Shown here: piece by piece, positions 19,390-64,000 of the stretch
Numbering within the stretch: position 1 is the first letter of the stretch
Layout: every line of letters starts with the position of its first letter
Virus record (IMG/VR): IMGVR_UViG_3300047157_000144
DNA length: 64,000 nt
Origin: an uncultured virus (IMG/VR IMGVR_UViG_3300047157_000144)
Lineage: Duplodnaviria; Heunggongvirae; Uroviricota; Caudoviricetes
Direction: 5' to 3' (one strand)
The notes under the pieces: model-generated
What the model saw: only the letters and a program-made list of their open reading frames with translations
Database searches by the model: none
What the model was told of the DNA's origin: nothing
Made by a program: the position numbers and the translations under genes

Positions 19390-21806
19390 ATGAATATATT
19401 ACCAAAGGTGTATTCCCAAGCCAAGCAGTTTCAAATGCTGAGAAAGCAAGTGAAAAATATGGTTTAGAGATTGCAAGGGCATTGAATCAGAATGGTTTAA
19501 AAGAGATTCTGGTACAGCTAGGTACTACGCTAATAGAGACAATTTTCACCGTTTAAGATTATATGCTAGAGGTGAACAGTCAATACAAAATATAAAGATG
19601 AATTATCTATTAATGGTGATTTATCATATTTAAATTTAGATTGGAAACCAGTTCCTATTATACCTAAGTTTGTAGATATAGTAGTAAATGGTATTGCAGA
19701 AAGAACATATGATATAAAAGCATATTCACAAGATCCAGCATCAGTACAAAAAAGAACAGATTATGTAGAATCTTTATTAAAAGATATGAGTACAAAAATT
19801 TTTCAGATTCAGTTTATAATGAATTTGGTATAAATATATATGAAAATGACCCAGACACATTGCCTGAAACGAAGAGGAGTTACAATTGCATATGCAACTT
19901 GATTATAAAGATTCTATTGAAATAGCAGAAGAAGAAGCTATTAATAATGTATTTGATCATAATAAATATGAATTAATAAAGAAAAGATTAGATTATGATA
20001 TAGCTGTTATTGGTATGGGCGCTGTTAAAAACGAATATACAACATCAGAGGGTATAAATATAAAGTATGTAGACCCAGCTGATTTAGTTTATTCATACAC
20101 AGAGTCACCACATTTTGATGATATATATTATGTAGGTGAAATAAGAAAAGTGTCTGTAGTTGATTTAAAAAAGCAATATCCTGAGTTAACAGATGAAGAT
20201 ATAAGAAGAGATATAGAGGGGCAAGGAACAAATGCTAAACTATATAATAAATCTTATGCAGGTAATGACAGTGAGGATAATTCTCATGTTATGTATTGTA
20301 TTTTGAATATAAAACATATAAAGATCAAGTACATAAAATAAAAGAAACCTCTTCAGGTGCTTCGAAAAAGCTATTAAAAAAGATGATACTTTTAATCCGC
20401 CTAAAGATGAAAGATCTAGATTTACCAAAAAGTAATAGAACAATAGAAGTAATTTATGAGGGCGCTAAAATAGTTGGTACTAATAAATTATTAAAATGGC
20501 AATTAGCTGAAAACATGACAAGACCAAAGTCAGATACAGTTAAAGCCCAGTTTAGTTATAATATTGTAGCACCAAGAATGTATAAAGGTAGAGTTGAATC
20601 TCTTGTAAGCAGAATGACTACGTTTGCAGATATGATTCAATTAACACATTTAAAGTTACAACAGGTATTATCAAGAATGGTTCCTGATGGTGTTTACTTA
20701 GATGCAGACGGTATTGCTGAAATAGATTTAGGTAATGGAACTAATTATAATGCGCAAGAAGCATTAAATATGTATTTCCAAACAGGTTCTGTTATTGGTA
20801 GATCAATGACACAAGACGGTGAATTTAACAATGGTAAAGTTCCTGTTCAAGAATTACAATCATCTGGGTCTAATGCTAAAATATCAAGTTTAATTAATTC
20901 ATATAATTATTATTTACAAATGATAAGAGATGTGACCGGATTAAACGAAGCAAGAGATGGTTCAACACCAGATAAAAATGCTTTAGTAGGGTTGCAAAAA
21001 ATCGCAGCTGCAAATTCAAATACAGCAACAAGGCATATATTACAAAGTGGATTATATCTTACGTTAAAAACAGCTGAAGCTATATCGCTAAGAATATCAG
21101 ATGTATTAGAGTTTAGCCAACTACGAAAATCTTTTATACAAGCTATTGGTAAATTTAATGTAGGAACTTTAGAAGAAATTAAAAAATTACAACTTCATGA
21201 TTTTGGAATATTTTTAGAATTAGCACCAGATGAAGAAGAAAAACAATTACTTGAAAATAATATACAAATGTCTCTTCAAAAAGAACAAATTAATTTAGAA
21301 GATGCTATTGATATTAGAGAAATAAGAAATTTAAAACTTAGCTAATCAATTATTAAAAGTTAAGAAGAAAACAAAAATTTGAACAAGATAGAGCTATACA
21401 GCAAGAAAATATTCAAATGCAAACTCAATCTAATGCTCAAGCAGCTCAAGCAGCAGCACAAGCAGATATTCAAAAGCAACAAGCAATAACTCAAAGTAAA
21501 GCTCAATTAGCACAAATGCAATCACAATTAGATACACAAAAATTAGAAAAAGAAGCAGAAATTAAAATGATGCTAATGGAAAAAGAATTCCAAATGAACA
21601 TGCAACTTAAAGACGCTGATTTAAATGTAATTAAAGATAAAGAGAAGTATAAAGAAGATAGGAAAGATGAAAGAACAAAAATACAAGCTTCTCAACAATC
21701 TGAATTAATAGATCAAAGAAAAAATAATAAACCACCAAAAAAGTTTGAATCAGCAGGATTTGATAACTTGGGGGGATTTGGCTTAGAGCAGTTTGAGCCT
21801 AAATAA
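19390..21806 (+). CDS. portal protein (several indels)
   Basis: Follows terL; fragments LSYLNLDWKPVPIIPKFVDIVVNG, MIRDVTGLNEARDG, Q-rich C-terminal coiled coil. Confidence 0.8.
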
Positions 21807-21838
21807 AAACTGCAAACACATTTTTATAATATTTTATC

Positions 21839-23005
21839 ATGGAAGAAAACAAAGACGTCGTAGTTGACGAAACACCAACTGCCGCAGAAAAGGAAGAACA
21901 AGTACTTGAAGCAGCAGGGCAAGACACGGGTAAAACCGAAGACGGTATGTATAAAGTTGATTTAAGCAAACCGGTAGAACAAGAAACAGAGCCTGTTCAA
22001 GAACAAAGCACAGATGAAGAAGAGGTTACTGAAGAGGTTCCAGAAGAAAATCAATTAACCTTAGAAGAAGTAATTGAAGAAGAAACAAAAGAAGATTGAC
22101 CTAAAGAAGAGGTTAAAGAAGAAGTACAGGAATTTACAAGACAAAGTAGAAGAAGCTGTACAAACCTCACAAGACACAGGAATAGAATTACCAGAAAACA
22201 TTCAAAAAGTTGTAGACTTTATGAATGAAACTGGTGGAACGTTAGAAGATTATGTAAAAATTAATCAAGATTATTCTAACATAGATGACTCAACTTTATT
22301 ATATCAATATTATAATCAAACTAAATCACATCTTACAAAAGATGAAATTGATTTTTTAATTGATGATAATTTTTCATTTGATGATGAAATTGATGAGCAA
22401 AGAGATATTAAGCGAAAAAAACTCGCTTATAAAGAAGAGATTGCAAAAGCCAAAAGCTATTTAGAAGGATTAAAGGACCAAATATTACAAAGAAGTCAAG
22501 TTGGGTTCTAAGTTAACCGGAGATCAGCAAAAAGCTATTGAGTTTTTCAATACCTACAACTCTGAACAATCAGAACAAGCAAAGCTACAAGAAAAGCAAG
22601 TGAATCATTTTAATAATGAATCTAAAAAAGTTTTTAATGACGAATTCAAAGGTTTTGAATTTGAAGTGGGAGACAAAAAGTATAGATACAATGTTAATGA
22701 TAAACAAAAAGTTTTAGATAAGCAAGCAAATATATTAAACGTACTAGATAAGTATATCAGTAAAGATAATATGTTACAAGACGCTAAAGGTTATCATAAA
22801 GCACTTTTCGTTGCAGACAATGCAGATGCAGTTGCAAATCATTTTTACGAACAAGGTAAAGCTGATGCTATAAAACAGTTAAATGCAGATTCAAAAAATA
22901 TAAATATGGATCCGCGTAAAGCTGGCACAGTTGAAACTGGAGGCATAAAAGTAAGAGCAATTTCTGGGGATGATAGTTCAAAGTTAAAATTAAACTTAAA
23001 AAATA
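21839..23005 (+). CDS. scaffold-like acidic protein (indels; end approximate)
   Basis: Very E-rich N-terminus; three ORF fragments between portal and capsid. Confidence 0.6.
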
Positions 23006-23026
23006 ACTTTAAAAAAATAAATAAAA

Positions 23027-24462
23027 ATGGCAGCAATAACTCCATCAGCGGGAGGCTCGTTGAACGCAACGCCAGCACCAGCTAAACAAACATTAGCGAC
23101 TAACTACCTATCATTTACAGGTGGTCATAACGATTGGTCTCAGCAATACTTACCAGATTTATACGAAGCAGAAGTTGAAAGATATGGAGACAGATCTATA
23201 GCTTCTTTCTTAAGAATGGTAGGTGCTGAAATGCCTATGACTTCTGATCAAGTAATTTGGTCTGAGCAAGGTAGACTACACTTACTTACTACAGGTGCAG
23301 CAGTAGCAACACCGGTGTAATTACAATCGCATCTTCAGGAACTCACGCATAAGAGTAGGTCAAACTAGTAAAATTAGCGAAAGGTAAACTTCTCCTACAG
23401 TAAGTTAAAGCATACGTTTCAGCAATAGCGCGGGACAACACAACTTAACAGCTTAAACCTTATACAGGTGGTGCAACAGTAAGCTACATCAGGTGATCTT
23501 TTACAACAGATGAATAGACAGCAACTTGTGACATTATTCGTGTATGGTTCTGAATTTGCAAAAGCTACTACAGGAATGACAGGTGCAGTAACACCATCTT
23601 TCAAGCTTCTTTACTAACAAACCAATTATAATTAAAGATAAGTATGAGGTTTCAGGATCTGACGCTTCTCAAATTGGTTGGGTTGAAGTAACAGGTGAAA
23701 ATGGACAATCAGGTTACTTATGGTATTTAAAAGCAGAAGGTGATACAAGAACAAGATTCGAGGATAACTTAGAAATGGCAATGATTGAAGGTGAACTAGC
23801 AGCATTAGCTGGTGGTGTGGACTCTCATCTACTAGGTACAGCTGGAGCAGAAGGCAGGAACTGAAGGTTTTTTGCAGCAATAACAGAAGAGGTCACGTTA
23901 CTACTGGTATTGATGGTACATCTCCAACAGATGACTTAGGTTCTTTTGACAACATTCTTAAGAAATTAGATGCTCAAGGTGCAATTGAAGAAAACATGTT
24001 ATTTATAAACAGAGATGTATCATTAGCATTGATGATATGCTAGCAACTCAAAATTCTTACGGAGCAGGTGGTACATCTTACGGTGTATTCTCTAACAGCG
24101 AAGATATGGCACTTAACTTAGGTTTCTCTGGTTTTAGAAGAGGTTCTTATGACTTCTACAAAACTGACTGGAAATACTTAAATGATATTCAACAAGAGGT
24201 ATATTGAAAACGACATAAGAGGTGTTGTACCAGCTGGTACATCTACTGTTTATGACCAAACACTTAGGTAAAAACATTAAAAGACCATTCTTACACGTCA
24301 GATATAGAGCTTCTGAAGCTGATGACAGAAAAATGAAATCTTGGACAACTGGTTCTGTAGGTGGTGCAACTCACTTCTGATCTAGATGCAATGGAGGTAC
24401 ACTATTTATCTGAAAGATGTTTAGTAGTACAAGGTGCTAATAACTTTATGTTATTAACTTAA
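23027..24462 (+). CDS. major capsid protein (many indels)
   Basis: QQYLPDLYEAEVERYG..SDQVIWSEQGRLH; PIIIKDKYEVSGSD; LNLGFSGFRRGSYDFYKTDWKYLND; HYLSERCLVVQGANNF; followed by a strong terminator. Confidence 0.8.
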
Positions 24463-24476
24463 TCCTTATTTAATAT

Positions 24477-44014: not shown

Positions 44015-44231
44015 AAAGATTGTAATTGTTTTAGTGCTTATGGTGTTTACGTCTTGTTATAGTATAAAATCTACAGTTGTAAATAAGTTAGACGAGACTT
44101 GGCCTTGGAGCACTATAAAATACAAAGGGAACCAGAATTTAGATTCCCTTCATATTAATAAACAAAACAAAACTAACCATCGCAACTTAAGCAATCTGGA
44201 TTCATTGCCTCCGCCGCAATATCGCCTCTGA
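43986..44231 (+). CDS. putative lipoprotein (spanin candidate)
   Basis: KKIVIVLVLMVFTSC lipobox-like signal directly after the endolysin; overlaps the nrdA end. Confidence 0.45.
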   Translation: MEEQRIALYKKIVIVLVLMVFTSCYSIKSTVVNKLDETWPWSTIKYKGNQNLDSLHINKQNKTNHRNLSNLDSLPPPQYRL

Positions 44232-45918
44232 GAACACTTTCAGTCCTCATATAATATAAAGTTTTAATTCCTCGCTTCCAAGCTTCCATATGAACTTTAT
44301 TAATCCATCTAGGTTCAGCCTGTGATGGAAACGCAAGATTTAAACTTACAGATTGATCGACATAAGTTTGTCTTATACCTGCCTGATTAACTAATTCTAG
44401 TTGATTTATTTCCTTAAACGTTTTGAAAACATTTTTAACCGGCTCGCCACCTTTTTCCTGAGTAAGCTTGCCAGTAGTATCGTAATAGTAACCATCTAAT
44501 TCTTTTATTCCTTGTATAGATCCTTTATCTTTAAGAACTTTATCCCAAGTCTTTTGGGTATTTATATTTAATTTCTTAAATACTTTTTCAAGTTCTTTAT
44601 TTTTCCTTATAAACGTTCCTTTAGCAGATTGCTCTGTAAATACATTAGCAGCCCAAGGTTCAATTCCTGGTGATACATTACCAGACAATTTACTATTTGA
44701 TACTGTTGGTGCCACCGCTCTTAAGTGTGTGTTTCTCATTCCTGTACCTACACACCATAATGGTTCACCATAAATATCGGCTAAGTCTCTACTAGCCCTC
44801 TCAGTTTCTAATTTTAACTGGGAAAATATTTCTCTTGTTTTAAACTGCGCAAGCAATCCTTCAAAAGCAATACCTTTTTGTTGTAACAGCGTATGCCATC
44901 CAAGCACACCTAATCCTAATGCTCTGCCTTTTTCAGCAGATCTAACAGCATTATCAAAGCCTTTCATATTTTTAGCTCTTTGTATAAATTCAGATAACAC
45001 TCCATCTAAAAACCAAGTAGCATCATATATAAGATCACTATTCTTCCATTCATCATACTTAGCTAAATTAACAGAAGATAAACAACAAACAAAAGAATGT
45101 GACTCATCTGTGTGTAGTGTAATCTCAGAACATATATTAGTCATATGAACTTTTAAACTATTAGCTTTATATGCTTTAGGATTTGCTTTATTAGTATTAC
45201 CTTTAAACATTATATAAGGTTCACCTGTAGCTTTTCTTTTCTGTAACAACTTACTCCATTTAGCTCTAGCATCAGGCTGTCCCTCTTCAAGTCTTCTCAT
45301 AAACTTATCACCGATAATTGCACATTGATGTAAATTTAATGATTGTCTATTAACATCACCTTTAGGTTCTCTAATTTCTAACCAATCTAAAAAGTCTGGG
45401 TGATCAATGTTTATATTAACAGATGCAGCACCTCTTCTAACTGATCCTTGATTTGTAGCAAGTATAGTTGAATCATATATCTTACAGAATGGTACAACAC
45501 CATCTGAAGTGCCATTCCCCGCTATAGTAGCACCAGCTGGTCTAATCATATTTACACCAAGACCTACACCACCACCGTGTTTTGCAAGCAACATCATTTC
45601 GAGATTCTTATTACCTATATCCATAATGCTATCAGCAACATCGATACCAAAACAACTTATAGGCAAACCTCTATCAGTTCCAGTATTTGATAATACAGGC
45701 GAAGCTAAACAAAGCCACCCTTTCCATATATAATCAAAAAACTTATCTGCAAGTTCAGGTTTATACAATCTTCTAGCGACCGCGTTAGAAACTCTCCTGT
45801 AAGCGTCTTTAGGTGATTCGCCTTGTAATAGATAACCACCAGCTATAGTCTTCTTATACACGTCCGTATCGCCCCAGGAGGGGTAGTCTACACCTTTCTT
45901 CCAATCGTTATTCCACAT
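44173..45918 (-). CDS. nrdA: ribonucleotide reductase class I alpha subunit (short, no ATP cone)
   Basis: ISCF, GGGVG, TNICSEI, CCLSSVN, APTVSNS, KTLYY, C-terminal CLSC. Confidence 0.95.
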   Translation of the reverse strand: MWNNDWKKGVDYPSWGDTDVYKKTIAGGYLLQGESPKDAYRRVSNAVARRLYKPELADKFFDYIWKGWLCLASPVLSNTGTDRGLPISCFGIDVADSIMDIGNKNLEMMLLAKHGGGVGLGVNMIRPAGATIAGNGTSDGVVPFCKIYDSTILATNQGSVRRGAASVNINIDHPDFLDWLEIREPKGDVNRQSLNLHQCAIIGDKFMRRLEEGQPDARAKWSKLLQKRKATGEPYIMFKGNTNKANPKAYKANSLKVHMTNICSEITLHTDESHSFVCCLSSVNLAKYDEWKNSDLIYDATWFLDGVLSEFIQRAKNMKGFDNAVRSAEKGRALGLGVLGWHTLLQQKGIAFEGLLAQFKTREIFSQLKLETERASRDLADIYGEPLWCVGTGMRNTHLRAVAPTVSNSKLSGNVSPGIEPWAANVFTEQSAKGTFIRKNKELEKVFKKLNINTQKTWDKVLKDKGSIQGIKELDGYYYDTTGKLTQEKGGEPVKNVFKTFKEINQLELVNQAGIRQTYVDQSVSLNLAFPSQAEPRWINKVHMEAWKRGIKTLYYMRTESVLRGDIAAEAMNPDCLSCDG

Positions 45919-46108
45919 CTTCTTGTTTTTCTTTCATTTGTTCTTCTAATTTCTTAATAGCTTCATCATAATCTGGCATATTTTTAATAGTTTGTAAAGT
46001 GCCAACCGACAAATCTCTAAGATTAGTTAATTCCTGTAGAACACCCTGCATTAAAGCGCCAAGCTGTTCTATTTTTTTCCTCATTATTATTAGTTCTGAT
46101 TCTTTCAT
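45908..46108 (-). CDS. small coiled-coil hypothetical protein
   Basis: 66-aa ORF in the RNR operon. Confidence 0.55.
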   Translation of the reverse strand: MKESELIIMRKKIEQLGALMQGVLQELTNLRDLSVGTLQTIKNMPDYDEAIKKLEEQMKEKQEDVE

Positions 46109-46113
46109 ATTTA

Positions 46114-46293
46114 TTATTTAATTCCGCAAGACGTAGTTATTAAGTGAACTACTTCATTTACGCACTCTTCGTTATCCACATATCTATTGCATTTTTCAAC
46201 AGCGTATGTTTCAATTGTTTTTAAATCACATTCAACTTCTGTTTTACTACAGCTTATTAAAGCTAATAGTAATAGACTACCAAATATCCTCAA
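46114..46293 (-). CDS. putative small Cys-rich lipoprotein (start uncertain; frame open to 46464)
   Basis: LRIFGSLLLLALISC lipobox then four more Cys. Confidence 0.5.
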   Translation of the reverse strand: MRIFGSLLLLALISCSKTEVECDLKTIETYAVEKCNRYVDNEECVNEVVHLITTSCGIK

Positions 46294-47245
46294 AATCTTC
46301 TCCTTCGTTTGCTTTAGAATAGTCAGTAGGCCTGATAGCAAAAAAATCGGTGTGAGTAACACCCCCAGTAAGATGATAAAACCAATCCAAAGTACTAGCG
46401 CTGGTTGCATCAAATCCAAAATGATTTGCTTCGTTTGTGTAACCGAGTTCAACGATTTTTTCATTTGCTCTTTTCTTTATAAAGTTTTTTAAATCTTCTT
46501 TCTTTAAATTTTCTATATCACCTTGTTCAAACATTTTATCGATATATTTTAATTCAAGGTCTACCATTATATCCGCAGCTTCAAGAACATGATCTTTACA
46601 ATCTTCTTTTAGGTTTGGTGTTTCTTCACACATATGTCTAAACAATTGACAACCCATTTTTGAATGTAATGATTCATCTCTTACTGACCATTTCATTTGC
46701 TGGCCAATACCTTTAAGTAAGTTTCTAAGCTGAAAGCTATATAAAACAGCAAAAGCAGAGTATAACGAAACACCTTCAGCAAAAGCGCTAAAGACTGCCA
46801 AACTTTTGGCAATACCAATTTTATCTTTTCCTTCATAAGCAACTAAATTATCAAACCTGTCCGCTGTAGCTGGTTCATGTAAGAATGCTTCAAAGTCTTC
46901 AAGACCTAAAGTTTCATTCAAATATGAATACGCAACCGCGTGCACGGTTTCTTGTGAGCCAAATATCATGGCCATTTGTTTTATTTCATGTTTAGGAAAC
47001 CAGTTTACTACATTTTGTGTCCAGTAATCTGATACAGCACATTCTGTTTGTGCAAATCCTAATAATATATTACCAACTAAATGCTTTTCAGATTCAGTTA
47101 ATCTTTCATTCCAATCTTTTACATCTCCAGACATACTAATTTCTGTGTGCAACCAAAAAGCTTGCGCTTGTGGTAACCAACCTTCGTTATAGTATTCTGG
47201 ATAATCAAAAGGTTTGTATGCTACTCTTTCATCAAATAATCCCAT
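46277..47245 (-). CDS. nrdB: ribonucleotide reductase class Ia beta subunit
   Basis: AFWLHTEI, ETVHAVAY (radical Tyr), EGVSLYSAF, RDESLH, HTDFFA.R..DY. Confidence 0.95.
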   Translation of the reverse strand: MGLFDERVAYKPFDYPEYYNEGWLPQAQAFWLHTEISMSGDVKDWNERLTESEKHLVGNILLGFAQTECAVSDYWTQNVVNWFPKHEIKQMAMIFGSQETVHAVAYSYLNETLGLEDFEAFLHEPATADRFDNLVAYEGKDKIGIAKSLAVFSAFAEGVSLYSAFAVLYSFQLRNLLKGIGQQMKWSVRDESLHSKMGCQLFRHMCEETPNLKEDCKDHVLEAADIMVDLELKYIDKMFEQGDIENLKKEDLKNFIKKRANEKIVELGYTNEANHFGFDATSASTLDWFYHLTGGVTHTDFFAIRPTDYSKANEGEDFEDIW

Positions 47246-47246
47246 A

Positions 47247-47396
47247 TTAATCTTCTTTATCGTGTTTAATTATTTCTAAAGCTATATCTACAAACGGTAG
47301 ATAAAGCACGTGTGAAACTACATCATCTAAATCATACGATCTAATTCCTATAAGTATTCCTGGATATAAGCCTATAGATATTCTCCATACTTTCAT
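47247..47396 (-). CDS. small hypothetical protein (49 aa)
   Basis: Manual translation MKVWRISIGLYPGILIGIRSY...HVLYLPFVDIALEIIKHDKED. Confidence 0.55.
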   Translation of the reverse strand: MKVWRISIGLYPGILIGIRSYDLDDVVSHVLYLPFVDIALEIIKHDKED

Positions 47397-47533
47397 ATTC
47401 TGCCTTGACCCTTATAAGCCTTTTTGTAATTCCTACTTGACTTAACATTACTTGTTTTTGTTTTTGCGTGTATACCTTTTCTCCTAATCTTTTTTCTTTC
47501 TTGGAGTACAGACATCATTCCATTTCTAGCCAT
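47393..47533 (-). CDS. small basic protein (46 aa)
   Basis: Manual translation MARNGMMSVLQERKKIRRKGIHAKTKTSNVKSSRNYKKAYKGQGRI; ATGA-coupled. Confidence 0.55.
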   Translation of the reverse strand: MARNGMMSVLQERKKIRRKGIHAKTKTSNVKSSRNYKKAYKGQGRI

Positions 47534-47693
47534 AAACTTCTATATTATATTTTTTGTGAATCTCTATAAGCTCATTCCACCTAAGAAAGCCCCTGTTAAT
47601 AGCCCACTTAATATGTTTTTCAACTTGTCTTTCTTTGTATTTTAATCTTGCTATTTTCTTTTGTTTCTCAGTATTTCTATAACCCTGTCGCAT
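47526..47693 (-). CDS. small hypothetical protein (55 aa)
   Basis: Manual translation MRQGYRNTEKQKKIARLKYKERQVEKHIKWA...; fills the gap. Confidence 0.45.
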   Translation of the reverse strand: MRQGYRNTEKQKKIARLKYKERQVEKHIKWAINRGFLRWNELIEIHKKYNIEVYG

Positions 47694-48109
47694 TCTTTTT
47701 GGTTTTGTGGTTTAAAAAGAGTATAACTAGGAAACTGCTCGGTAACTAATTTCTTAAACAACTTCCATCTAATAGGAAATGATTCATTAGGTCTACCTTT
47801 AGTTTCTATTATAAAGTTTTCACCAATAAAATCTGGTGTGTACTTTATAGGTAATATTCTTTTTTCACCTCTGTTCATAAATTCGCCCTTTGAGTTTGCC
47901 TGTCTTTCATAAACTTCATTTTCAAAATGAAATCCATTTAATAAAACAAAAGTTTCACCCTCGTACTTAGCTTTAATTTTTGCTTTTTGTAAAGCCATAT
48001 ACATATACTTTTCCAATCCTGAGGCAAAATTATGTCCATCATAACTAATTTTCCTAGATTGTACTGGCCCTCTTTTTTTCTTAGGGGCCTTCTTCCTTTT
48101 ATAAAACAT
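47651..48109 (-). CDS. T7 endonuclease I-like PD-(D/E)XK nuclease
   Basis: FASGLE...YEGE...YTPDF...IIETKG. Confidence 0.8.
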   Translation of the reverse strand: MFYKRKKAPKKKRGPVQSRKISYDGHNFASGLEKYMYMALQKAKIKAKYEGETFVLLNGFHFENEVYERQANSKGEFMNRGEKRILPIKYTPDFIGENFIIETKGRPNESFPIRWKLFKKLVTEQFPSYTLFKPQNQKECDRVIEILRNKRK

Positions 48110-48345
48110 TATTCTTTTGCTTTAAGATCTCTTAAATAACATTCTTCAATTTCACTTTTTAATGCTTGTCTTGTTTTTTCTATATAGTTGACAGCATCCA
48201 TTAACTCTTCTTGTATGTGTTGAAGCCATGTATCTAGTGGTTGGTCATCTTTATGTAAAGTAACGCCGTACTTTTTATAACCTACATCAGATCTGTTAAT
48301 AAACTTTTTTACTACTGATTCTATAATCTTATCTCTTATTTCCAT
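48109..48345 (-). CDS. small all-alpha NTP-pyrophosphatase-like protein
   Basis: RS.VG.KKYGVTL...WLQHIQEELMDAVNY (EExxD motif). Confidence 0.5.
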   Translation of the reverse strand: MEIRDKIIESVVKKFINRSDVGYKKYGVTLHKDDQPLDTWLQHIQEELMDAVNYIEKTRQALKSEIEECYLRDLKAKE

Positions 48346-48346
48346 A

Positions 48347-49105
48347 TTAGTCTTTTACAAATGTTCCGTTTACCATTCTCCCAGTTCTACCAGAAATCTC
48401 ATCATAAGCAGACTGCATACAAGTTTCAATTGAAACACCGTTGAGTTCGGCGAGATTAGTAAGAACAACAACGCTATCACCAATAGCATCGATAACACCT
48501 TCTTTATCATTGTTAAGAAGGGATTGCGATAATTCCCCTGTTTCTTCATATAATTTTATTAATTGTGTTTTAGCATCTCCTTTATCTAAGATACCTTTTT
48601 CTTTGGCCCATTGCCTTATAAGATCAAATAACTCAACTTTACCATGTTCTGGTTTAGCTTTGAATGCTTCATAAAAAGCTTTGTTATAAATATAAGTTCT
48701 GTCTTTGTCATACATAGACTTATATGAATTAGCTAGTATCCATTGAATTTGCTCTTTCTGTATTTTAAAATCACCTAATGGCGTTTGCCAACTTAACCCT
48801 ATGTTTTTTTCGAGCATATCTTTAAGCCCTTTCTTTTTGCATGGGAATGTTGAGGTTTGCTCTGTTGCATTTATTTTCATTTTTTTATTTACTAAATTTT
48901 TATATAATGTTCTATCTACTTTGTACCCATAAAACTTTTGAAGCTCTATTTCTCGCTTTGATATATAATTAATATCAGACGAAGAATCTAGAACTTCATA
49001 TTCCCCAGGCTTATAGCCCTGCACAAGCGTAACTCTATTATTTAAATCACGTGTTACACCGATTTTTTTATTAGGTATATGATAAATATAATATATTTCT
49101 TCCAT
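48347..49105 (-). CDS. MazG-like nucleotide pyrophosphohydrolase with N-terminal GIY-YIG-like segment
   Basis: C-terminal KLYEETGEL...DAIGDSVVVL..LA...AYDEI..R.G.M.NGTFVKD; N-terminal YYIYHI...KIGVT. Confidence 0.8.
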   Translation of the reverse strand: MEEIYYIYHIPNKKIGVTRDLNNRVTLVQGYKPGEYEVLDSSSDINYISKREIELQKFYGYKVDRTLYKNLVNKKMKINATEQTSTFPCKKKGLKDMLEKNIGLSWQTPLGDFKIQKEQIQWILANSYKSMYDKDRTYIYNKAFYEAFKAKPEHGKVELFDLIRQWAKEKGILDKGDAKTQLIKLYEETGELSQSLLNNDKEGVIDAIGDSVVVLTNLAELNGVSIETCMQSAYDEISGRTGRMVNGTFVKD

Positions 49106-49112
49106 ATTTTTT

Positions 49113-49946
49113 TTATTTTCCTACAGATAATTCTGCTTTAATAGCAGGACTGTGATTATATCCTTCTAATGTTATAGTATCTTTATTAGGAAGGAATACA
49201 AAATCATTTGCACCTTCTCTTAATTTTATACCGCCCCATTCCATTTTTAGTTTGGGTAAATCGTATTGCTTTGCAGCAATATACTCTTCTGCTTGTTTTA
49301 AATGATTGTTATATAAATGACAATCGCCTAAGCTAGCAATAAGAGTTCCAGCTTCATAACCTGCACCGTCTGCTATCATTTCTAATAACAAGCCATACAT
49401 AGCTATATCATATGGTAATCCTAGAAATACATCTGCACTTCTTTGTTGCCACATTAAGTCCAGTTTACCATCGTTATAAAATAACTGGAAGTTATAATGA
49501 CAAGGAGGGAGTACCATATCGTGAAGATCAGAAACGTTCCAAGCTGATACCATGAGTCGTCTACTGGTGGGATTTTCCCTAAGCTCCTGAAGCACCACTT
49601 GTAATTGATCGATGCCATTAGCATGACGCCACTGGTGACCGTATACGGGACCAAGTTTTCTATCAGTCCTACCAGATCTTTGGTAATCAGGAATCCAATA
49701 CTTGACACCGTTATCAATAAGATAGTCCAAGTCGCTTCTGCCTTCGACAATCCAAAATAATTCTGTTTTTGCATGATTAAATATAATTTTCTTTTTTGTT
49801 AGTAAAGGAAACCCAAGCTTCATATCGTGGTATAACATTCTACCAAATACAGCTCTTGTTCCTGTTCCAGTCCTATCTTCTTTAGGTTTACCTCCGTGTA
49901 ATATACCGGACATTAAACCTGTGTATTCATCTTCTATATTTCTCAT
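49113..49946 (-). CDS. thyA: thymidylate synthase family enzyme; Asn-to-Asp at the specificity position suggests dCMP (hydroxy)methylase
   Basis: DRTGTGT, FPLLTKK, LGPVYG.QWR, SRR, LPPCH, QRSADVFLGLPYD, GDCHLYNNH. Confidence 0.9.
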   Translation of the reverse strand: MRNIEDEYTGLMSGILHGGKPKEDRTGTGTRAVFGRMLYHDMKLGFPLLTKKKIIFNHAKTELFWIVEGRSDLDYLIDNGVKYWIPDYQRSGRTDRKLGPVYGHQWRHANGIDQLQVVLQELRENPTSRRLMVSAWNVSDLHDMVLPPCHYNFQLFYNDGKLDLMWQQRSADVFLGLPYDIAMYGLLLEMIADGAGYEAGTLIASLGDCHLYNNHLKQAEEYIAAKQYDLPKLKMEWGGIKLREGANDFVFLPNKDTITLEGYNHSPAIKAELSVGK

Positions 49947-50229
49947 AATAGTACATACATGTTTTATACATCATTTGTTTGCATTCCACAGCCTTGTAGG
50001 ACTCTGGAGATACATTTACTTTTTCTCCTTTTTTATAAGGGCCAATAATTACGGTTATATACCATTCTTTTGGTGCAGCACCTGTTGATATAGGCTGGTA
50101 AGATATTCTAATATTATTTCTAATACAGAAATCATGAGCTGCTCTTTCTTCTGTTGTAGGAAAGTAACTGCCCATAATAGACTTTTTACGTTTTCTACCA
50201 ACGTCCATTGCATTTACTGTTCCTGCCAT
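49927..50229 (-). CDS. hypothetical protein
   Basis: 100-aa ORF downstream of the repeat motif. Confidence 0.55.
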   Translation of the reverse strand: MAGTVNAMDVGRKRKKSIMGSYFPTTEERAAHDFCIRNNIRISYQPISTGAAPKEWYITVIIGPYKKGEKVNVSPESYKAVECKQMMYKTCMYYYEKYRR

Positions 50230-50260
50230 ATTATCTTATTTAGTTCGTATTTGTTACGTA
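50230..50260 (-). promoter_or_regulatory. 31-bp phage motif copy (TACGT-N6-TACGA-N9-GATAAT)
   Basis: TACGT AACAAA TACGA ACTAAATAA GATAAT. Confidence 0.75.
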
Positions 50261-51982
50261 TCATTCCCAAGGCATTATAGTATTTTCTGGTATAGGTTCT
50301 GAATGTGGTATATAACAACCAGACTTAGGTTCCCAAGTAAAGAATGCTTCTCCTCCGTTTTCACCTAAATTTTGAAACTTAACTTTTAATACTTTTATCT
50401 TTGTTGTTTTCTTTTCATAATCTCTATGAACTAACAAACCGTGATAACTAGCATCATACCATTCACCTCCACCTTTAATGTTATACATCGTAGGCTCTTC
50501 AATTTTACCATTAGAATCTTTATACATTTTAGTTGGGTGAGCAACTATTATAACTAGTACATCATATTTTTTAGCAAACATTTCAATTTTAGTTAAGTAT
50601 TCTAATGTGTATACATTAACATCACCATTGTTAGAATCTAAATCTCTAACTTTATTAAATGGATCAATCACAAGGCATTTAATACCTTTACGTTTTACAA
50701 GCTCAGCACCTTTCTTTAATACTGAATCTAATGTATAACGTTCCATATCGATAAAATAAAAGTTATCGTTTATATATTCTGTTGTTTGTTCCCATTTGTC
50801 TTTACCAATATCAGATTTAGATGGCATACCTTGCCAAGCTTTTCTCATTAGTTTATGGGCGTGTAAATAAGTGGGTGCATTTTCTGGTGATGCAAAAGCT
50901 GTCTTCCAGCTGTATTGTTGATTATAACCTATTACCATTTGATCTACAAAATCTGATTTACCAGAAGATGGTATACCTGTAACAGTTATAAACTGTCCTG
51001 TATATGTAGAAAATATATCATCAAAGTTACGTAAACCTATTTGAAATCCTGGTTTAAAACCGTTTTCAACAAAGTCTACAACATCGCCTTCAATATCTTT
51101 AAAGGTTGTAACATTTTCAAGTGGCACAGGACTAGATTTATCTATAACCTGTTTTAAAGAATCAACTCCATATTTAATTAAATATTCATTTGCGTCTTTA
51201 CAATCTTTAAAAGAAGTTGTATAGCAAACCTCAGCACCTAGTCTTCTTATAAGCTCGTTTTTTAAAGCTACGCCTGGCTCATCGTTATCAACAGCTATGA
51301 TTATCTTTTCAATGTTTGTAAAGTAATCTATACAGTTATCTAAGTAATCTAAGTTGTTTGTGCCTAAGGTTGCGCCGTTTGGAACTGAAATAGCATTTGG
51401 TATACCTGCTTCATGCAAAGCTAGTACATCAATTTCACCTTCAGTTATAACACAAAAAGAATGGCCTACAATAGCATCAATATTATAAAATACTTTTTCA
51501 GCACCTTTATAAAGCTTGAAGTTCTTGCGGCCATCTCTATACTTAATGTTGATGAGCTCACCACCCATCATATAATTAAATTTAATTGTGTTCTCCTCTT
51601 TAGAAGATTGTGGCATAAACTCAGGACCCTCGGAAACATTTAAGTCTTCAAGAGTCTTCTGAGATATACCTCTACTATTAAACCACTCTACAACTTTTGA
51701 ACCTACTGGTTTGTGGGTTTTAGCAGAAAAGTCGGGGCGAACATAAACCTTATCGCTTGTTCCTTTTCTTTTAAAAGTATGTAGCTGAAATGATGTATTA
51801 CAATTATGACAAGTACCTAATCCTCTCTCCCAATCATAAGAAGCACACTTTTTCTTTTTATTCTCAGACTTTCTTGTGTGTGAACATAGAGGGCATGTAC
51901 CTTCAGGTGCACCTACTTTTAAGTCGTGTTGATTAAATTGGTCGATCTGGAAACCATTGATTTCCGAATTATTTACTTGCAT
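50261..51982 (-). CDS. primase-helicase, T7 gp4/Twinkle-like
   Basis: Zn finger CPLC..CHNC, TOPRIM EGEID and DND..G, KDANE, Walker A GIPSSGKS, VIDP, VAHP. Confidence 0.92.
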   Translation of the reverse strand: MQVNNSEINGFQIDQFNQHDLKVGAPEGTCPLCSHTRKSENKKKKCASYDWERGLGTCHNCNTSFQLHTFKRKGTSDKVYVRPDFSAKTHKPVGSKVVEWFNSRGISQKTLEDLNVSEGPEFMPQSSKEENTIKFNYMMGGELINIKYRDGRKNFKLYKGAEKVFYNIDAIVGHSFCVITEGEIDVLALHEAGIPNAISVPNGATLGTNNLDYLDNCIDYFTNIEKIIIAVDNDEPGVALKNELIRRLGAEVCYTTSFKDCKDANEYLIKYGVDSLKQVIDKSSPVPLENVTTFKDIEGDVVDFVENGFKPGFQIGLRNFDDIFSTYTGQFITVTGIPSSGKSDFVDQMVIGYNQQYSWKTAFASPENAPTYLHAHKLMRKAWQGMPSKSDIGKDKWEQTTEYINDNFYFIDMERYTLDSVLKKGAELVKRKGIKCLVIDPFNKVRDLDSNNGDVNVYTLEYLTKIEMFAKKYDVLVIIVAHPTKMYKDSNGKIEEPTMYNIKGGGEWYDASYHGLLVHRDYEKKTTKIKVLKVKFQNLGENGGEAFFTWEPKSGCYIPHSEPIPENTIMPWE

Positions 51983-52006
51983 ATAGTTTATTTCTTGTTG
52001 TGGTTC

Positions 52007-52318
52007 TTAAAATGGTAAATCATCTTGTGCAACCTGCTGCTTTGGCGCCGCTGCTTGTTGCTGATTATCCCTTGGTACAGGCTGTGGAAATTCTCCATCA
52101 GTCCATACAATAGTAGCATTACCTAGAAACGTTCTAGGCTCCTTAGCTTCTCGCTCTTCCTTAGACTGAGCAATAGCTACTGGTCCGTGATTACCATAGG
52201 CATCAACATCATTATTTACAGTAATAGTGATCGGTAGATACTGACCCTTTTTACCTTGAATAATTCTTGACTTATCTATAGCAGTAAGGTTTATACTTGT
52301 TTTAATAATTCCAGCCAT
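52007..52318 (-). CDS. putative single-stranded DNA-binding protein
   Basis: Beta-rich core, Q-rich linker, acidic DDLPF C-terminus. Confidence 0.65.
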   Translation of the reverse strand: MAGIIKTSINLTAIDKSRIIQGKKGQYLPITITVNNDVDAYGNHGPVAIAQSKEEREAKEPRTFLGNATIVWTDGEFPQPVPRDNQQQAAAPKQQVAQDDLPF

Positions 52319-52321
52319 TTC

Positions 52322-52489
52322 TTAATATGTTTGTAATTGTGAAAACATTCTTTGTAATTGACTTCTATTAGCGCCAGTTGCGCGTCTTAAATTGTCAACA
52401 GCTTTTACATGCGTTTGATTGCTGTAAAAGTTTTTCTCACTTGTTGTTACTCCTGTAACGCTACAAGTTCTTTTCTTTGTTCTTGCCAT
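52322..52489 (-). CDS. small hypothetical protein (55 aa)
   Basis: Manual translation MARTKKRTCSVTGVTTSEKNFYSNQTHVKAVDNLRRATGANRSQLQRMFSQLQTY. Confidence 0.55.
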   Translation of the reverse strand: MARTKKRTCSVTGVTTSEKNFYSNQTHVKAVDNLRRATGANRSQLQRMFSQLQTY

Positions 52490-52498
52490 AATATTAAA

Positions 52499-53242
52499 TT
52501 AAAGTGTTTTAGTTAAAAAAAATTGCGATGGATCAAAGCCATCTGTTTTAAAGAATAGTTCATATGATTCAGTAGCTCTAAGAACTTTATCTCTACCTGA
52601 TTCATAGAATTCATCCGAACAATCAAATATTCCTATTTGATGTGTTGTCTTATCCATTACGATAAATAACATATCATAACCAAACATCTCTTTATAGATA
52701 TAAGCCTGACTGTCATAATTATATTTATTTGCTGACCATTTAAATTTACTTACATCAGCACTGGTCTTGAGGTCTATAATAAGTTGCTCGTCCTCATTTA
52801 TTATATCGGCTTTTCCTTTCCACATGTTACCGAACAATCTTACTATCCCGGGTTGTTCGTATTTGACACGTGCGCCTTTTCTTGAACCTCGTATATAATC
52901 TTTACATACATTGTTCTTTAGCAACTTTTCTCGCATTAATTCAATTTTGTCTGCTTCATGCTGAAGTAAACATAATTCACCCTCGGAAATTTCCTTATAC
53001 TTTTTTGTATTTCTTGTAGAAGATTCGATGATTTTAAAATTATCAATCTTATCTGGTTCAAGTATACTAGTATGGAAATAACCCCCAACTAAAAAAGCAG
53101 AGCTCATAGGTGAGGGTGCTTTAAAGCTTAGTGGGTCTTTTAATAACGCGGATATGTCTGAGTTACTTAAATATTGCTTGCCAAACTTACCATAATAATG
53201 GTCGTCTGATTTAAGTTTTTCTAAGACTTCGTCTTTTGTCAT
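52499..53242 (-). CDS. RecE/exonuclease VIII-like PD-(D/E)XK exonuclease
   Basis: YLSNS, G.YFH..ILEP, KGKADI..IIDLKT, Y.YDSQAYIY. Confidence 0.8.
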   Translation of the reverse strand: MTKDEVLEKLKSDDHYYGKFGKQYLSNSDISALLKDPLSFKAPSPMSSAFLVGGYFHTSILEPDKIDNFKIIESSTRNTKKYKEISEGELCLLQHEADKIELMREKLLKNNVCKDYIRGSRKGARVKYEQPGIVRLFGNMWKGKADIINEDEQLIIDLKTSADVSKFKWSANKYNYDSQAYIYKEMFGYDMLFIVMDKTTHQIGIFDCSDEFYESGRDKVLRATESYELFFKTDGFDPSQFFLTKTL

Positions 53243-53776
53243 TTATAGTGTTGTTAATGATTTTTCTTGTTCAGGTGTCATAGTATACTTCTTTTTAATT
53301 TGAGCAACTTTGCCTCCTGACTTAACATATTCTTGAGCTTGTTTTAATTGAGCTGATGTCATAGTAGTAGCCGAAGCACCGTGTGTATTTGTAGCATCGG
53401 AATCTGCAGTGTCATCAATTAGCAATAAATTACCTAAAGCATATTTCTTACCATAAGATGATGCGGAGCCAAATTGCTGTGGTGTTTGCATACCTTTCTG
53501 ATTAAGATCCACACCTACAATAGCTGTTGCTGATATAAATGCTTCGCTTTCAGTGTCGTGAATTTGTGCTCTTGTCTCTATTACAGGAACAGTCAAATTT
53601 GACATTTGAAATTGCTCGTGAACAACAAAGTATACTTTATACTTTTCATTGTACGGTTTTAATGCTTCAAGAATATCTTCGGCGGATCTGAAGTTGTACT
53701 TGCCGAAGGAGTTGTAACGTGATTTCTTACTTTTGAACTCTTTTTGTATTAAACTTAATTTTTGATATATTGTCAT
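53243..53776 (-). CDS. ERF-family single-strand annealing protein
   Basis: NSFGKYNFRSAEDIL...QQFGSASSYGKKYAL.NLLLIDD..DSD. Confidence 0.85.
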   Translation of the reverse strand: MTIYQKLSLIQKEFKSKKSRYNSFGKYNFRSAEDILEALKPYNEKYKVYFVVHEQFQMSNLTVPVIETRAQIHDTESEAFISATAIVGVDLNQKGMQTPQQFGSASSYGKKYALGNLLLIDDTADSDATNTHGASATTMTSAQLKQAQEYVKSGGKVAQIKKKYTMTPEQEKSLTTL

Positions 53777-53811
53777 TGTCTATATATATTATTACGTGTT
53801 TTGTTAAAATG

Positions 53812-54135
53812 TTAATTTCCAAGCTTATAGAATAACCAAGCTTGTTGTGATCTTGGCTTTGTTACTACTAAACTTGTGTTCCCAATGTGAAACAATAAGT
53901 CATACTCATCGTTTACATCTGTTCTGATTACTCTTAACTCACCATCAACTATTTCTAGTTTACCTTGAGCTAATATCCCTTCTGTACTTCTCCTAGTGAA
54001 TGTATCATTAGGTTGAATTATTAAAAGTTCTTGATCTAGGTTATACCAATTGCCATATAATTCTGGCGGAATTGAATTTGATTGCGTATAGCAAAAGCTA
54101 GTTGCCATCAAAAATGTAATTATTAATTTTCTCAT
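53812..54135 (-). CDS. secreted small beta protein (lipocalin-like)
   Basis: Signal peptide, LYGNW..., beta-strand pattern. Confidence 0.5.
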   Translation of the reverse strand: MRKLIITFLMATSFCYTQSNSIPPELYGNWYNLDQELLIIQPNDTFTRRSTEGILAQGKLEIVDGELRVIRTDVNDEYDLLFHIGNTSLVVTKPRSQQAWLFYKLGN

Positions 54136-54887
54136 AAAAAATCTAAGACTTGTGATTTGTCAACGTTTTGCACCAATTTATCTATTGCGTCTCTTTTAAT
54201 TTGTGAGACTCGAACATAATTAGCGGTGCCTTCTATATTAAGTTCAGCTGCTATTTGTTTAGCAGTCATTTTATCACAGTCGAGCCCATAGCTCATACGT
54301 AGTACATCATATTCTCTTTCTAATAGATTTGTCTTCATAAGACCCAATAGATATTTATTAATTATATCTATATTGTATTTCTCTGATTTATCCTCAATCT
54401 GCATTACAGAGTTGTCTTCATCATTTTCATATTCAATATCTATACTAGAAAATATACTGTTAAAAAACATTTGCACTATCATCTTATCTCCACCGTCTGA
54501 TTTTCTAATTTCATTAAGCTTGTATTCGGGGATCCTCATGTTACCTCGATTAATATCAATCTCTCTTCTTATTGATCCTCTTATACGTTTCGACAAAAAC
54601 GATTTAAGCGTTTTCTCAGGGTGCTCAGATTCATTAACAACACTCCAATCTATTCGATCGACTGCGTAAATTAAACCTTCTGCTCCTGATTGCAATAAAT
54701 CATTTATACTTAGAACGCCGGAAGCTTGGTCTGAAGTAGAAAACGAGCGCGCTACGGACTCGACTAATTCTAAATTTTCAATTATAATGTTATCTCTCTC
54801 TGAGTATTTACCCTTTGAGGCTAAATTTAAACTGTCTTCTAAATCAAGTTTCCACCTGACATAGTTTTGGACGTTATATCTTTTCAT
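54132..54887 (-). CDS. sigma-70 family RNA polymerase sigma factor
   Basis: Region 2 (ENLELVESVAR...DLLQSG.EGLI.AVDR), MRIP, region 4 (EREYDVLRMSYGL...TAKQIA...RVSQIK..AI.KL). Confidence 0.85.
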   Translation of the reverse strand: MKRYNVQNYVRWKLDLEDSLNLASKGKYSERDNIIIENLELVESVARSFSTSDQASGVLSINDLLQSGAEGLIYAVDRIDWSVVNESEHPEKTLKSFLSKRIRGSIRREIDINRGNMRIPEYKLNEIRKSDGGDKMIVQMFFNSIFSSIDIEYENDEDNSVMQIEDKSEKYNIDIINKYLLGLMKTNLLEREYDVLRMSYGLDCDKMTAKQIAAELNIEGTANYVRVSQIKRDAIDKLVQNVDKSQVLDFL

Positions 54888-55903: not shown

Positions 55904-56398
55904 TTATATGAAACTAGGTGCTTGTAAATGCGGTTGCTCATCTTTTATTGTTACTTGTTTTTTATCGTTAATATAATAATTCCAGTATGCTTTAGATGAA
56001 TGATTTTCAACTTTATATTCATCAGGCATACATTGAGGTGGTTGTGTGAAAGGTGTATTATCAATATATAAAGGCGGTGTGTATAGCACGTCTCTACACT
56101 TTTCAATAGTAAGATGCGTTCTACCGTATCTGTTAGTATACTCATCACCCAGCGCCATCATGTACTGATATGTCCAATTGTAATTGTCTAAGCCTGAACG
56201 CACCCATATTGTTGACGGGTGGTTTACATGCGCTTTCTTATAAGGAACATAACTAGTATCATACTCATAATCTTCTCCGATCACATGATGTGCAGTACAA
56301 AGCATTTGGGCAGCTTCCAACGGCATTTTAACAACATGTCTGTTGTAATGATATTCAGCAGCTTTTACTGGGTCTGGGTGTAAGTAAAATATATTCAT
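55904..56398 (-). CDS. pyrimidine-dimer DNA glycosylase (DenV/endonuclease V-like family)
   Basis: MNIFYLH.DP..AA..H...HVVKM.LE.AQMLCTAH...H.NHPSTIWVR...EYT.RYGR.H...PQCMPDEYK. Confidence 0.7.
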   Translation of the reverse strand: MNIFYLHPDPVKAAEYHYNRHVVKMPLEAAQMLCTAHHVIGEDYEYDTSYVPYKKAHVNHPSTIWVRSGLDNYNWTYQYMMALGDEYTNRYGRTHLTIEKCRDVLYTPPLYIDNTPFTQPPQCMPDEYKVENHSSKAYWNYYINDKKQVTIKDEQPHLQAPSFI

Positions 56399-63480: not shown

Positions 63481-64000
63481 ATGGAATTCAATAACCCAAG
63501 TGAGATAGTAAAGAACCTGTCATTCGGAACGGATGCAAGGGAAAAAATAATGAAAGGTGTCCTCAAACTGACGGATGCTGTAGAATCAACTTTAGGTGCA
63601 TCGGGAAAATGTGTCATATATGAAGATGCGTTAGGTAAACCTGTAATCACCAAAGATGGTGTAACTGTTGCAAACTCTGTTGTACTATTAGATCCCGTGG
63701 AAAACATAGGGGCTACGCTTATTAAAGAAGCAGCACAGAAAACAGTAAAAGAAGCTGGAGATGGAACCACTACCTCGACTGTCCTAGCTTCAGCCATCTT
63801 AAAAGAATGTGACAAGCATGCTGATGTAGATTTAAGATACATTAAACAAGGTATAGCGAAGTCAAAGAGTAAGATACTAGACTATTTAGAGAAAATAAAA
63901 ATAGAGGTATCAGATGAAATGTTAAACAGCGTCGCAGCGATCTCTGCAAATAACGACACCGATCTTGGAGATATAATAGCTGACGCTTATAAAAAAGTCG
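63481..64000 (+). CDS. groEL: GroEL chaperonin, N-terminal part (runs off the window)
   Basis: Manual translation ...LTDAVESTLGASGKCVI...PVITKDGVTVA...ENIGATLIKEAAQKT..EAGDGTTTSTVLA...VAAISANND..LG.IIADA. Confidence 0.95.
   Translation, partial: MEFNNPSEIVKNLSFGTDAREKIMKGVLKLTDAVESTLGASGKCVIYEDALGKPVITKDGVTVANSVVLLDPVENIGATLIKEAAQKTVKEAGDGTTTSTVLASAILKECDKHADVDLRYIKQGIAKSKSKILDYLEKIKIEVSDEMLNSVAAISANNDTDLGDIIADAYKKV

Follow-up and report, generated by a model that had tools for sequence, protein, structure and literature searches.

All cytosine in the DNA of phage Xp12 is reported to be replaced by 5-methylcytosine (5mC; PMC7653180). Among enzymes of the thymidylate synthase (TS) fold, numbered here as in E. 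coli ThyA, Asp177 is described as selecting deoxycytidine monophosphate (dCMP), Leu143 as leading to methyl products and Asp or Glu143 to hydroxymethyl products, with D169N typical of 5-hydroxy-dCMP synthases (PMC13326640). Metagenomic Asp177 homologues are reported to associate with modified contigs and to co-occur with PF01503 (PMC8670742; bioRxiv 10.1101/2024.12.05.627091), position 147 being given as a second site that tells modified from unmodified contigs in MetaGPA (PMC8670742). Furthermore, the Xp12 enzyme and five of seven metagenomic Asp177 enzymes are stated to have made 5-methyldeoxycytidine in E. coli given T4 gp1 (bioRxiv 10.1101/2024.12.05.627091), and Pamexvirus is described as carrying such a gene under the annotation of an ordinary TS (PMC9206674). 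Here, we analyse a TS-like gene and its neighbours in a 64,000-nucleotide stretch of DNA (the window) from an uncultured virus of the Caudoviricetes (IMG/VR record IMGVR_UViG_3300047157_000144). This gene, called type A below, probably encodes a 5-methyl-dCMP (5mdCMP) synthase with a dCTPase partner. The literature searched, mostly without subscription papers, holds no description of DNA modification for this phage family.

The type-A enzyme contains the motif QRSADVFLGLPYDIAMY, in which D180 is encoded by a GAT codon at 49407-49409 (-), and its PPCH motif is intact (C149, H150). In pairwise alignments D180 pairs with the Asn of solved ThyA chains at the E. coli Asn177 position, so that the reading of this residue in the preliminary description, which was made from the window alone, was correct. 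An alignment of 201 rows (the query, 80 related loci and 120 proteins) has Asp at this position in 200, the codon being GAT in 78 and GAC in two of the 80 loci. A single-base change from AAT to GAT had raised the worry of chance or error. This concern was removed, since all 80 related loci encode Asp and the 2.3-kb cassette matches two independent contigs without gaps at 99.5-99.8% identity. The sole Asn row, P0022, is a singleton in which the first ~176 residues of a type-A enzyme are joined at a conserved motif to the C-terminus of a canonical Asn-type ThyA, and it is likely a chimera produced by assembly.

The remaining active-site residues are those of the ThyA fold. R25, E62, Y102, R129, R130, C149, R169, H210 and Y212 are invariant in the 201 rows, covering the catalytic Cys, Glu58, Tyr94, the phosphate-binding Arg and the deoxyribose-binding His and Tyr; likewise, by criteria given in PMC5175136, the query is of the deoxyribose type at His207/Tyr209, at Ser167 and at the arginines. 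The Leu143 equivalent (L146) is present in 201 of 201 rows and the Asp169 equivalent (D172) is invariant. Canonical ThyA is marked by Asn177, which the query lacks. Enzymes of the gp42 type are marked by Asp or Glu143, a residue other than His at 147 and a short C-terminus, where the query has L146 and H150, and the 5-hydroxy-dCMP synthases (RB69, DLP3) combine D169N with L143E, where it has D172 and L146. The equivalents of Asp177, Leu143 and Asp169 therefore predict 5-methyl-dCMP, rather than a hydroxymethyl or hydroxyl derivative, as the product, in agreement with the earlier suggestion of a dCMP-directed enzyme more likely to methylate than to hydroxymethylate.

By profile score alone the type-A enzyme would be labelled ThyA (TIGR03284 score 251, cut-off 108), and it is 43-47% identical to bacterial ThyA. 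These values, together with the retention of His147 and the other catalytic residues, would fit an ordinary TS that converts dUMP to dTMP and tolerates Asp, with neighbours that are generic nucleotide-pool genes; MazG domains are common in phages, and ThyX takes the place of the enzyme in three records. We nevertheless consider this very unlikely. Among 80 matches in bacterial genome contigs, all 72 of cellular type have Phe-Asn, and Tyr-Asp occurs in just eight, which are 57-83% identical to the query. When 150 representatives were taken at 50% clustering, the residue at 177 was Asn in 133, Asp in 16 and Ser in one. Asp is fixed across a type-A clade of ~60% identity, where the positions equivalent to F176, S180, I79 and F62, as mapped to E. 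coli numbering in this analysis, have also changed and become fixed (F176Y, S180M and I79Y). Furthermore, the gene slot of this enzyme and the restriction-site pattern, both described below, stand against an ordinary TS: no Asn enzyme occupies the slot, and the sites follow those of hydroxymethylase genomes and not those of TS-less ones.

Relatives were gathered by their primase, not by TS, and 206 loci were read through to the endonuclease gene, overlapping contigs not being de-duplicated. In 199 of them the slot holds a TS-fold gene with Asp177 followed by a full MazG fusion (90 type A, 92 type B, 17 type C); the remaining seven, on five contigs, have neither, and an Asn-type enzyme occurs in 0 of 206. 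Type C is ThyA-like, with a PCY motif and about 35-39% identity to type A. Type B is short (212-254 aa), has D-T-P-C-T and GFCND motifs, and finds its best solved matches in MilA and T4 gp42. Exactly one TS-fold gene was found in 48 of 50 whole records, and in three of five further records. On a primase tree (FastTree, 142 rows) the TS types interleave, requiring no fewer than 18 changes where four would be the minimum; primases that are nearly identical go with different types, and the TS-less state has two origins. In a TS tree of 65 rows, type A forms one clade (SH-aLRT 83) within a 98-supported group that includes Asn enzymes, apart from type C and the Xp12 enzyme, a placement read with a caveat for long branches. 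From these sequences, a single slot has been occupied by three Asp enzymes of separate derivation, which makes a neutral Asp hard to credit.

Some observations on TS-fold genes stand apart from this comparison. One type-A genome only, G004, carries a 2OG-Fe(II) oxygenase and a DXD glycosyltransferase (L445:10258-13010). The closest cultured homologues of type B (48%) are in Bacteroides fragilis phages OP172667-OP172672, with two TS-fold matches each; these phages may serve as laboratory stand-ins for the hydroxymethylase allele. Two unrelated viral loci (L281, L334) have ThyX and a TS-fold gene within 6 kb.

The interchange of type A with a gp42-like enzyme also bears on the product. If the enzyme acted on dCMP but formed 5-hydroxymethyl-dCMP or another C5 derivative, as expected of type B, the interchange would follow readily; no dihydrofolate reductase (DHFR) is encoded, and a hydroxymethylase needs none. 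The folate-pocket residues Y83, I66 and Y179 differ from Asn-type ThyA, and the C-terminus is about two residues longer in most members. However, we judge such a product quite unlikely given the Leu at the 143 position in every row, where hydroxymethylases have Asp or Glu and type B has D-T-P-C-T, the retention of Asp169, unlike the 5-hydroxycytosine synthases, the full ThyA C-terminal region and a profile score far above the TIGR03284 cut-off.

The gene next to the TS gene encodes a fusion of three domains. Its C-terminal domain matches PF01503 weakly, carries residues E187, E188, E191, D206 and D210, has a profile match at E=9e-8 and resembles the MazG-type structure 1vmg (Z 10.1, rmsd 2.1 over 81 residues). 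The adjoining gene thus supplies the linked all-alpha NTP pyrophosphatase (PRA-PH/MazG) of the known systems, and its MazG domain is a predicted dCTPase. The full fusion co-occurs with the Asp-TS gene in 199 of 199 loci and is found in 0 of 7 TS-less loci, so that the linkage to MazG, proposed earlier as a check, extends across related phages. A stand-alone MazG domain lies elsewhere in the genome in three of 11 TS-less relatives, the fusion itself being missing there. The search for shorter stand-alone forms of the fusion domains returned mostly pieces from short contigs.

A GIY-YIG-clan domain N-terminal to MazG had been overlooked in the earlier reading. T5orf172 is matched by 28 of 40 fusion members at E<=0.5 (best 2e-4), the window member giving MUG113 at E=0.07 only; the domain also scores 0.95-0.97 to T5orf172 clusters in the ESM Atlas and finds GIY-YIG rows in BFVD at E 6e-3. 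GIY-YIG nucleases are marked by a Tyr/Gly motif on two strands, a catalytic Arg on helix 1 and a metal-binding Glu; in the fusion Y8, G16, R24 and E52 are invariant, and R24 and E52 may form the catalytic pair. No PDB match was obtained for this domain, whole-protein PDB fold searches being filled by the MazG domain, and the middle domain (aa ~78-150) had no family match. T4 endonuclease II (DenA), a GIY-YIG enzyme, is described as nicking unmodified DNA and sparing hydroxymethylated DNA (PMC2764454). If unmodified DNA is degraded at all, this domain would be a more plausible agent than the endonuclease-I-like gene, to which T4-like degradation of host DNA had first been assigned and which TS-less relatives also carry. 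In 11 loci, a gene for a CAP-domain protein (PF00188) with a signal-peptide-like start lies between the type-A TS and MazG genes (L090:8581-9009, L128:12746-13300 and nine more).

To compare restriction sites, palindromes were counted in 26 genomes, for the most part over the first 60 kb, and set against the expectation of a maximal-order Markov model. Fifteen have an Asp-TS gene (eight type A including the window, five type B, two type C) and 11 do not, these being three in-family ThyX genomes and eight sister-group genomes whose terminases are ~62% identical. The observed/expected ratio (O/E) of GATC was 0.75-1.18 in all 15 Asp-TS genomes, none of which had a 4- or 5-mer palindrome below 0.5 (window, 132 GATC against 177 expected). 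In contrast, it was 0-0.36 in all 11 genomes without Asp-TS, each of which avoided two to seven 4/5-mers; GATC was absent from all eight sister-group genomes, and an independent TS-less fragment, L191, had 0 against 11.6 expected. The median O/E of C-containing 6-mer palindromes was 0.88 in Asp-TS genomes and 0.76 in the others, with A/T-only 6-mers at 0.91 in both and a slight difference for A/T-only 4-mers (1.00 and 0.93).

The sites concerned correspond in part to enzymes of known sensitivity. Sau3AI, HpaII, AflII and PstI are reported as blocked on both 5mC and 5-hydroxymethylcytosine (5hmC) DNA (PMC7653180), and avoidance of their sites is released in Asp-TS genomes. EcoRV is reported to cut T4gt (5hmC) DNA and KpnI to cut Xp12 (5mC) DNA (PMC7653180); GATATC and GGTACC, their sites, are still avoided by type A. 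The median GATC O/E was lower in type A (1.03) than in type B (1.19), the direction that data on MboI and DpnII would predict for methyl compared with hydroxymethyl DNA; with six independent pairs and a median p of 0.25, this comparison is not used as support. CpG O/E, at 0.61 in the window and 0.68-0.69 in TS-less genomes, is low in both and so does not discriminate. The suggestion that cytosine is modified in the phage DNA thus gains from the retention of GATC in 15/15 genomes against its avoidance in 11/11, and it is supported that Asp-TS phage DNA behaves as C-modified. The pattern is strong circumstantial evidence and not proof, because the controls amount to about three lineages and host differences are uncontrolled. 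No bisulfite-library run containing 44173-54000 of the window was listed, which speaks neither for nor against modification.

Several observations weigh against a 5-methyl-dCMP synthase feeding modified DNA. The chief objection at residue level is the retention of His147: H150 is present in 201 of 201 rows, where replacement of His147 would be expected of a dCMP enzyme. His is, however, kept in 10 of the 16 other Asp representatives, and its replacement may therefore not define dCMP enzymes. Among the sites, CATG (NlaIII, reported as blocked by 5mC) and GAATTC (EcoRI, reported as blocked by 5hmC; both PMC7653180) are still under-represented in type A, and CATATG is a misfit, being released in type A although NdeI is reported to cut T4gt DNA (PMC7653180). 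DpnII and MboI are likewise said to cut Xp12 (5mC) DNA (PMC7653180), so release of GATC would not be expected with each of the enzymes that recognise it. The GATC O/E is below 0.7 in four loci of type A and one of type C, and the hosts of the roughly three TS-less control lineages may differ. No excess of transitions was found, the median transition/transversion ratio being 1.48 in type-A pairs (7-14% divergence) against 1.63 in type B and 2.29 in the TS-less clade, effectively one lineage; a signature of 5mC deamination is thus not seen in type A. Moreover, unlike in Xp12, neither dCMP/dCTP deaminase nor DHFR was found in any of 50 records, 41 of which are 90% complete or more, and no kinase-like P-loop protein was present among ORFs (open reading frames) shorter than 320 aa in 18 genomes, which bears out the earlier remark that no DHFR or kinase was visible. 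ThyX occurs in exactly the three TS-less members of the 50 records, as a role in dTMP supply would also predict.

That role deserves separate consideration. If the enzyme mainly supplied thymidylate, a host deaminase would turn 5mdCMP or 5mdCTP into dTMP or dTTP, and with phage kinase lacking there would be little or patchy 5mC. The confinement of ThyX to TS-less members, the lack of any visible kinase or polymerase and the 33% GC content of the genome all fit, and labelled cytosine in Xp12 is reported to end as both 5mC and T (bioRxiv 10.1101/2024.12.05.627091). We find this explanation unlikely, since it leaves the lost avoidance of GATC and CCGG in Asp-TS genomes unexplained, as well as the swap with a gp42-like hydroxymethylase, the product of which cannot deaminate to T. 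In addition, seven sister genomes have neither TS nor ThyX, so a phage source of dTMP is dispensable, and both are missing from 17 of 17 sister records searched. ThyX itself sits outside the TS slot, between RNR (ribonucleotide reductase) genes (L160:10736-11380; G046, G047, G052), and the in-family members returned by a ThyX-anchored search of 80 loci were all known already. These TS-less members also have a TonB-dependent-receptor-like gene, a DEDDh exonuclease and an SNase-like gene, not seen in the Asp-TS genomes examined.

For the preferred assignment, a 5-methyl-dCMP synthase, the route from 5mdCMP to the triphosphate has to be supplied. Published reconstitutions are described as having included a phage kinase (bioRxiv 10.1101/2024.12.05.627091; PMC13326640), and no DNA polymerase was recognised among the window ORFs scanned or in 17 related genomes, for which 142 further ORFs, chiefly family representatives, were examined. 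Because type B shares both the kinase gap and the site pattern, some host or unrecognised route to the triphosphate is implied.

From the residues, the linkage, the exclusivity and the site avoidance, which are observed, we infer each chemical step of the following proposal. The enzyme would be a deoxycytidylate C5-methyltransferase descended from a ThyA. The MazG domain of the next gene would hydrolyse dCTP to dCMP, which the Asp180 enzyme would convert with methylene-tetrahydrofolate to 5-methyl-dCMP, Leu146 excluding water, so that the product carries a methyl in place of a hydroxymethyl group. Host kinases and the host replicative polymerase, invoked because the phage shows none, would then place 5mdCTP in phage DNA, with most or all C becoming 5mC and many host Type II restriction enzymes being blocked. 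The TS gene would act as a plug-in, its place beside the same fusion being taken in relatives by another Asp enzyme derived from ThyA or by a hydroxymethylase resembling T4 gp42. A broader version is possible but doubtful: a large marine family may replace C fully by means of two genes, itself encoding no polymerase, DHFR, deaminase or kinase. The first would be a repeatedly swapped 5mC/5hmC modifier (two independent ThyA-derived Asp enzymes or a gp42-like one), and the second a GIY-YIG nuclease/MazG dCTPase chain that attacks unmodified DNA and so does the jobs of T4 DenA and gp56. Such swapping would be a chemical form of phase variation, directed at the Type II and Type IV restriction of hosts, that can be read in site counts.

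Table 1. Features of the window, with positions counted from its first nucleotide.
Feature	Position	Strand	Remarks
Class I RNR	44173-47245	-	downstream anchor, dNDP supply; beta 46277-47245, alpha 44173-45918
PD-(D/E)xK endonuclease	47651-48109	-	T7 endo I / Holliday-junction resolvase-like; PHROG 190, E=2e-10
78-aa helical-hairpin protein	48109-48345	-	core neighbour; invariant QEE..D
Three-domain fusion	48347-49105	-	252 aa; N-terminal T5orf172/MUG113 aa ~1-75; middle; C-terminal MazG-type NTP pyrophosphatase aa ~155-252
GIY-YIG-like domain of fusion	48881-49105	-	candidate nuclease; weak T5orf172/MUG113 matches; invariant R24, E52
ThyA-fold enzyme, type A	49113-49946	-	Asp177-equivalent D180; predicted dCMP C5-methyltransferase (5mdCMP synthase); PF00303, E=5e-81; 277 aa
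106-aa hydrophobic ORF inside type-A gene	49454-49774	-	same strand, +1 frame
100-aa core ORF	49927-50229	-	between primase-helicase and TS, overlaps TS start; no family match
Primase-helicase	50261-51982	-	upstream slot anchor, used to gather relatives independently of TS
Sigma-70-like factor	54132-54887	-	
Pyrimidine-dimer-glycosylase-family gene	55904-56398	-	
GroEL-like chaperonin start	63481-64000	+	

The gene order given in the preliminary description (MazG-type gene, 78-aa ORF, nuclease, RNR) was confirmed; its proposal of a modification system made up of the TS enzyme, the MazG-type gene, the 78-aa ORF and the nuclease is supported for the first two and not for the last two. The 78-aa ORF is present in eight of 11 relatives without Asp-TS, and is therefore not specific to modification; it also occurs in cultured phages of unrelated kinds. 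It had been called NTP pyrophosphatase-like from its motif, the invariant QEE..D being set beside the EExxE...D metal site of the MazG all-alpha fold. Pfam, NCBIfam, PDB-profile, hhalign and fold searches gave no support for this label, although a lack of listed families is no exclusion; the alignment to MazG by hhalign had a probability of 0.7%, and the two-helix model (pLDDT 91) had a best fold Z of 5.1 with no MazG chain in the top rows. The PD-(D/E)xK endonuclease is kept in three of three ThyX members and in L191, and is therefore a core gene, probably a resolvase, and not specific to modification. In L096, L108, L155 and L191 the class I RNR pair is replaced by a different RNR-like gene of ~620 aa, and the L191 slot holds a different 94-aa ORF and a 399-aa phosphoesterase-like ORF.

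The 106-aa ORF inside the type-A gene lies in a stop-free run of 114 codons; synonymous shuffles gave 37, and none of 500 reached that length. Of 96 type-A genes, 43 have a frame of at least 90 codons there, compared with none of eight type-C genes and one of 73 type-B genes. Within this ORF synonymous diversity is not lowered, its products diverge fast and GC3 is locally higher (0.37 against 0.17-0.23); it may be a real overlapping gene or a relic of codon usage.

The window appears to be a near-complete phage genome of ~64 kb and 33% GC. Its plus strand carries the terminase, portal, tail and ejection genes, and its minus strand the replication module. The cultured terminases closest to that of the window come from Flavobacterium, Cellulophaga, Tenacibaculum and Maribacter phages (39% at best, in Flavobacterium elemo phages), from which we infer a host among the Bacteroidota; the terminase of the uncultured MW202828 is 62% identical. 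No close cultured relative was found, TS matches in cultured phages reaching 44% at best. The terminase, portal and major capsid genes, single ORFs in relatives, are broken into several ORFs in the window, and the split ORFs at 17170-24475 (+) and in the tail region are probably assembly or long-read indel errors.

If the proposed assignment is true, common ocean phages annotated plainly as 'thyA' carry 5mC or 5hmC DNA, which would affect catalogues of viral auxiliary genes and environmental methylome data. The family would then offer a minimal form of base replacement that needs two genes and the kinases and polymerase of the host. It would also provide a naturally occurring N177D enzyme in which His147 is retained, as well as a candidate for a modification-sensitive fusion of nuclease and dCTPase. 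Its members with almost identical primases and different modifier alleles supply natural near-isogenic pairs for the trade-off between 5mC and 5hmC against restriction systems. The underlying chemistry has been described before, in Xp12 and by MetaGPA.

The closest described system is that of Xp12. Its 5mdCMP synthase (MT664984, QNN97214.1) and the Pamexvirus/Bosavirus relatives share with the query the ThyA fold, the GLPYD motif (Tyr176/Asp177) and an adjoining PRA-PH/MazG-type gene. The Xp12 enzyme is, however, 29% identical to the query and not its sister on the TS tree, where the query clade nests among Asn-type ThyAs, subject again to long branches. It has Pro at 147 where the query has His, a difference that belongs with the objections above, and Xp12 encodes a deaminase, DHFR and DNA polymerase I, none of which is found in the query family. 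The MetaGPA Asp177 homologues (PMC8670742; bioRxiv 10.1101/2024.12.05.627091) also combine Asp177 with a PF01503 partner; as reported there, they lie mostly beside 5mC-selective deaminases or carbamoyltransferases, and His147, which discriminates among them, is kept in the query. With T4 (gp42, gp56 dCTPase, gp1 kinase and DenA) the pathway logic is shared, and the type-B allele is gp42/MilA-like. Unlike T4, the query has Leu143 and a MazG fusion as dCTPase candidate, and no kinase, DNA glucosyltransferase or polymerase was found; DenA belongs to the GIY-YIG nucleases, a clan to which the N-terminal domain of the MazG fusion is linked by weak matches, although nothing connected the two in sequence. 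Engineered E. coli ThyA N177D and L. casei TS N229D contain the same single switch on a canonical ThyA with His147 kept, whereas in the query the change is natural, fixed and accompanied by the equivalents of F176Y, S180M and I79Y. The enzyme class, like its co-occurrence with PRA-PH/MazG proteins, is thus one already known from Xp12 and MetaGPA, and this phage family is probably a minimal, allele-swapping variant of a known strategy of cytosine modification.

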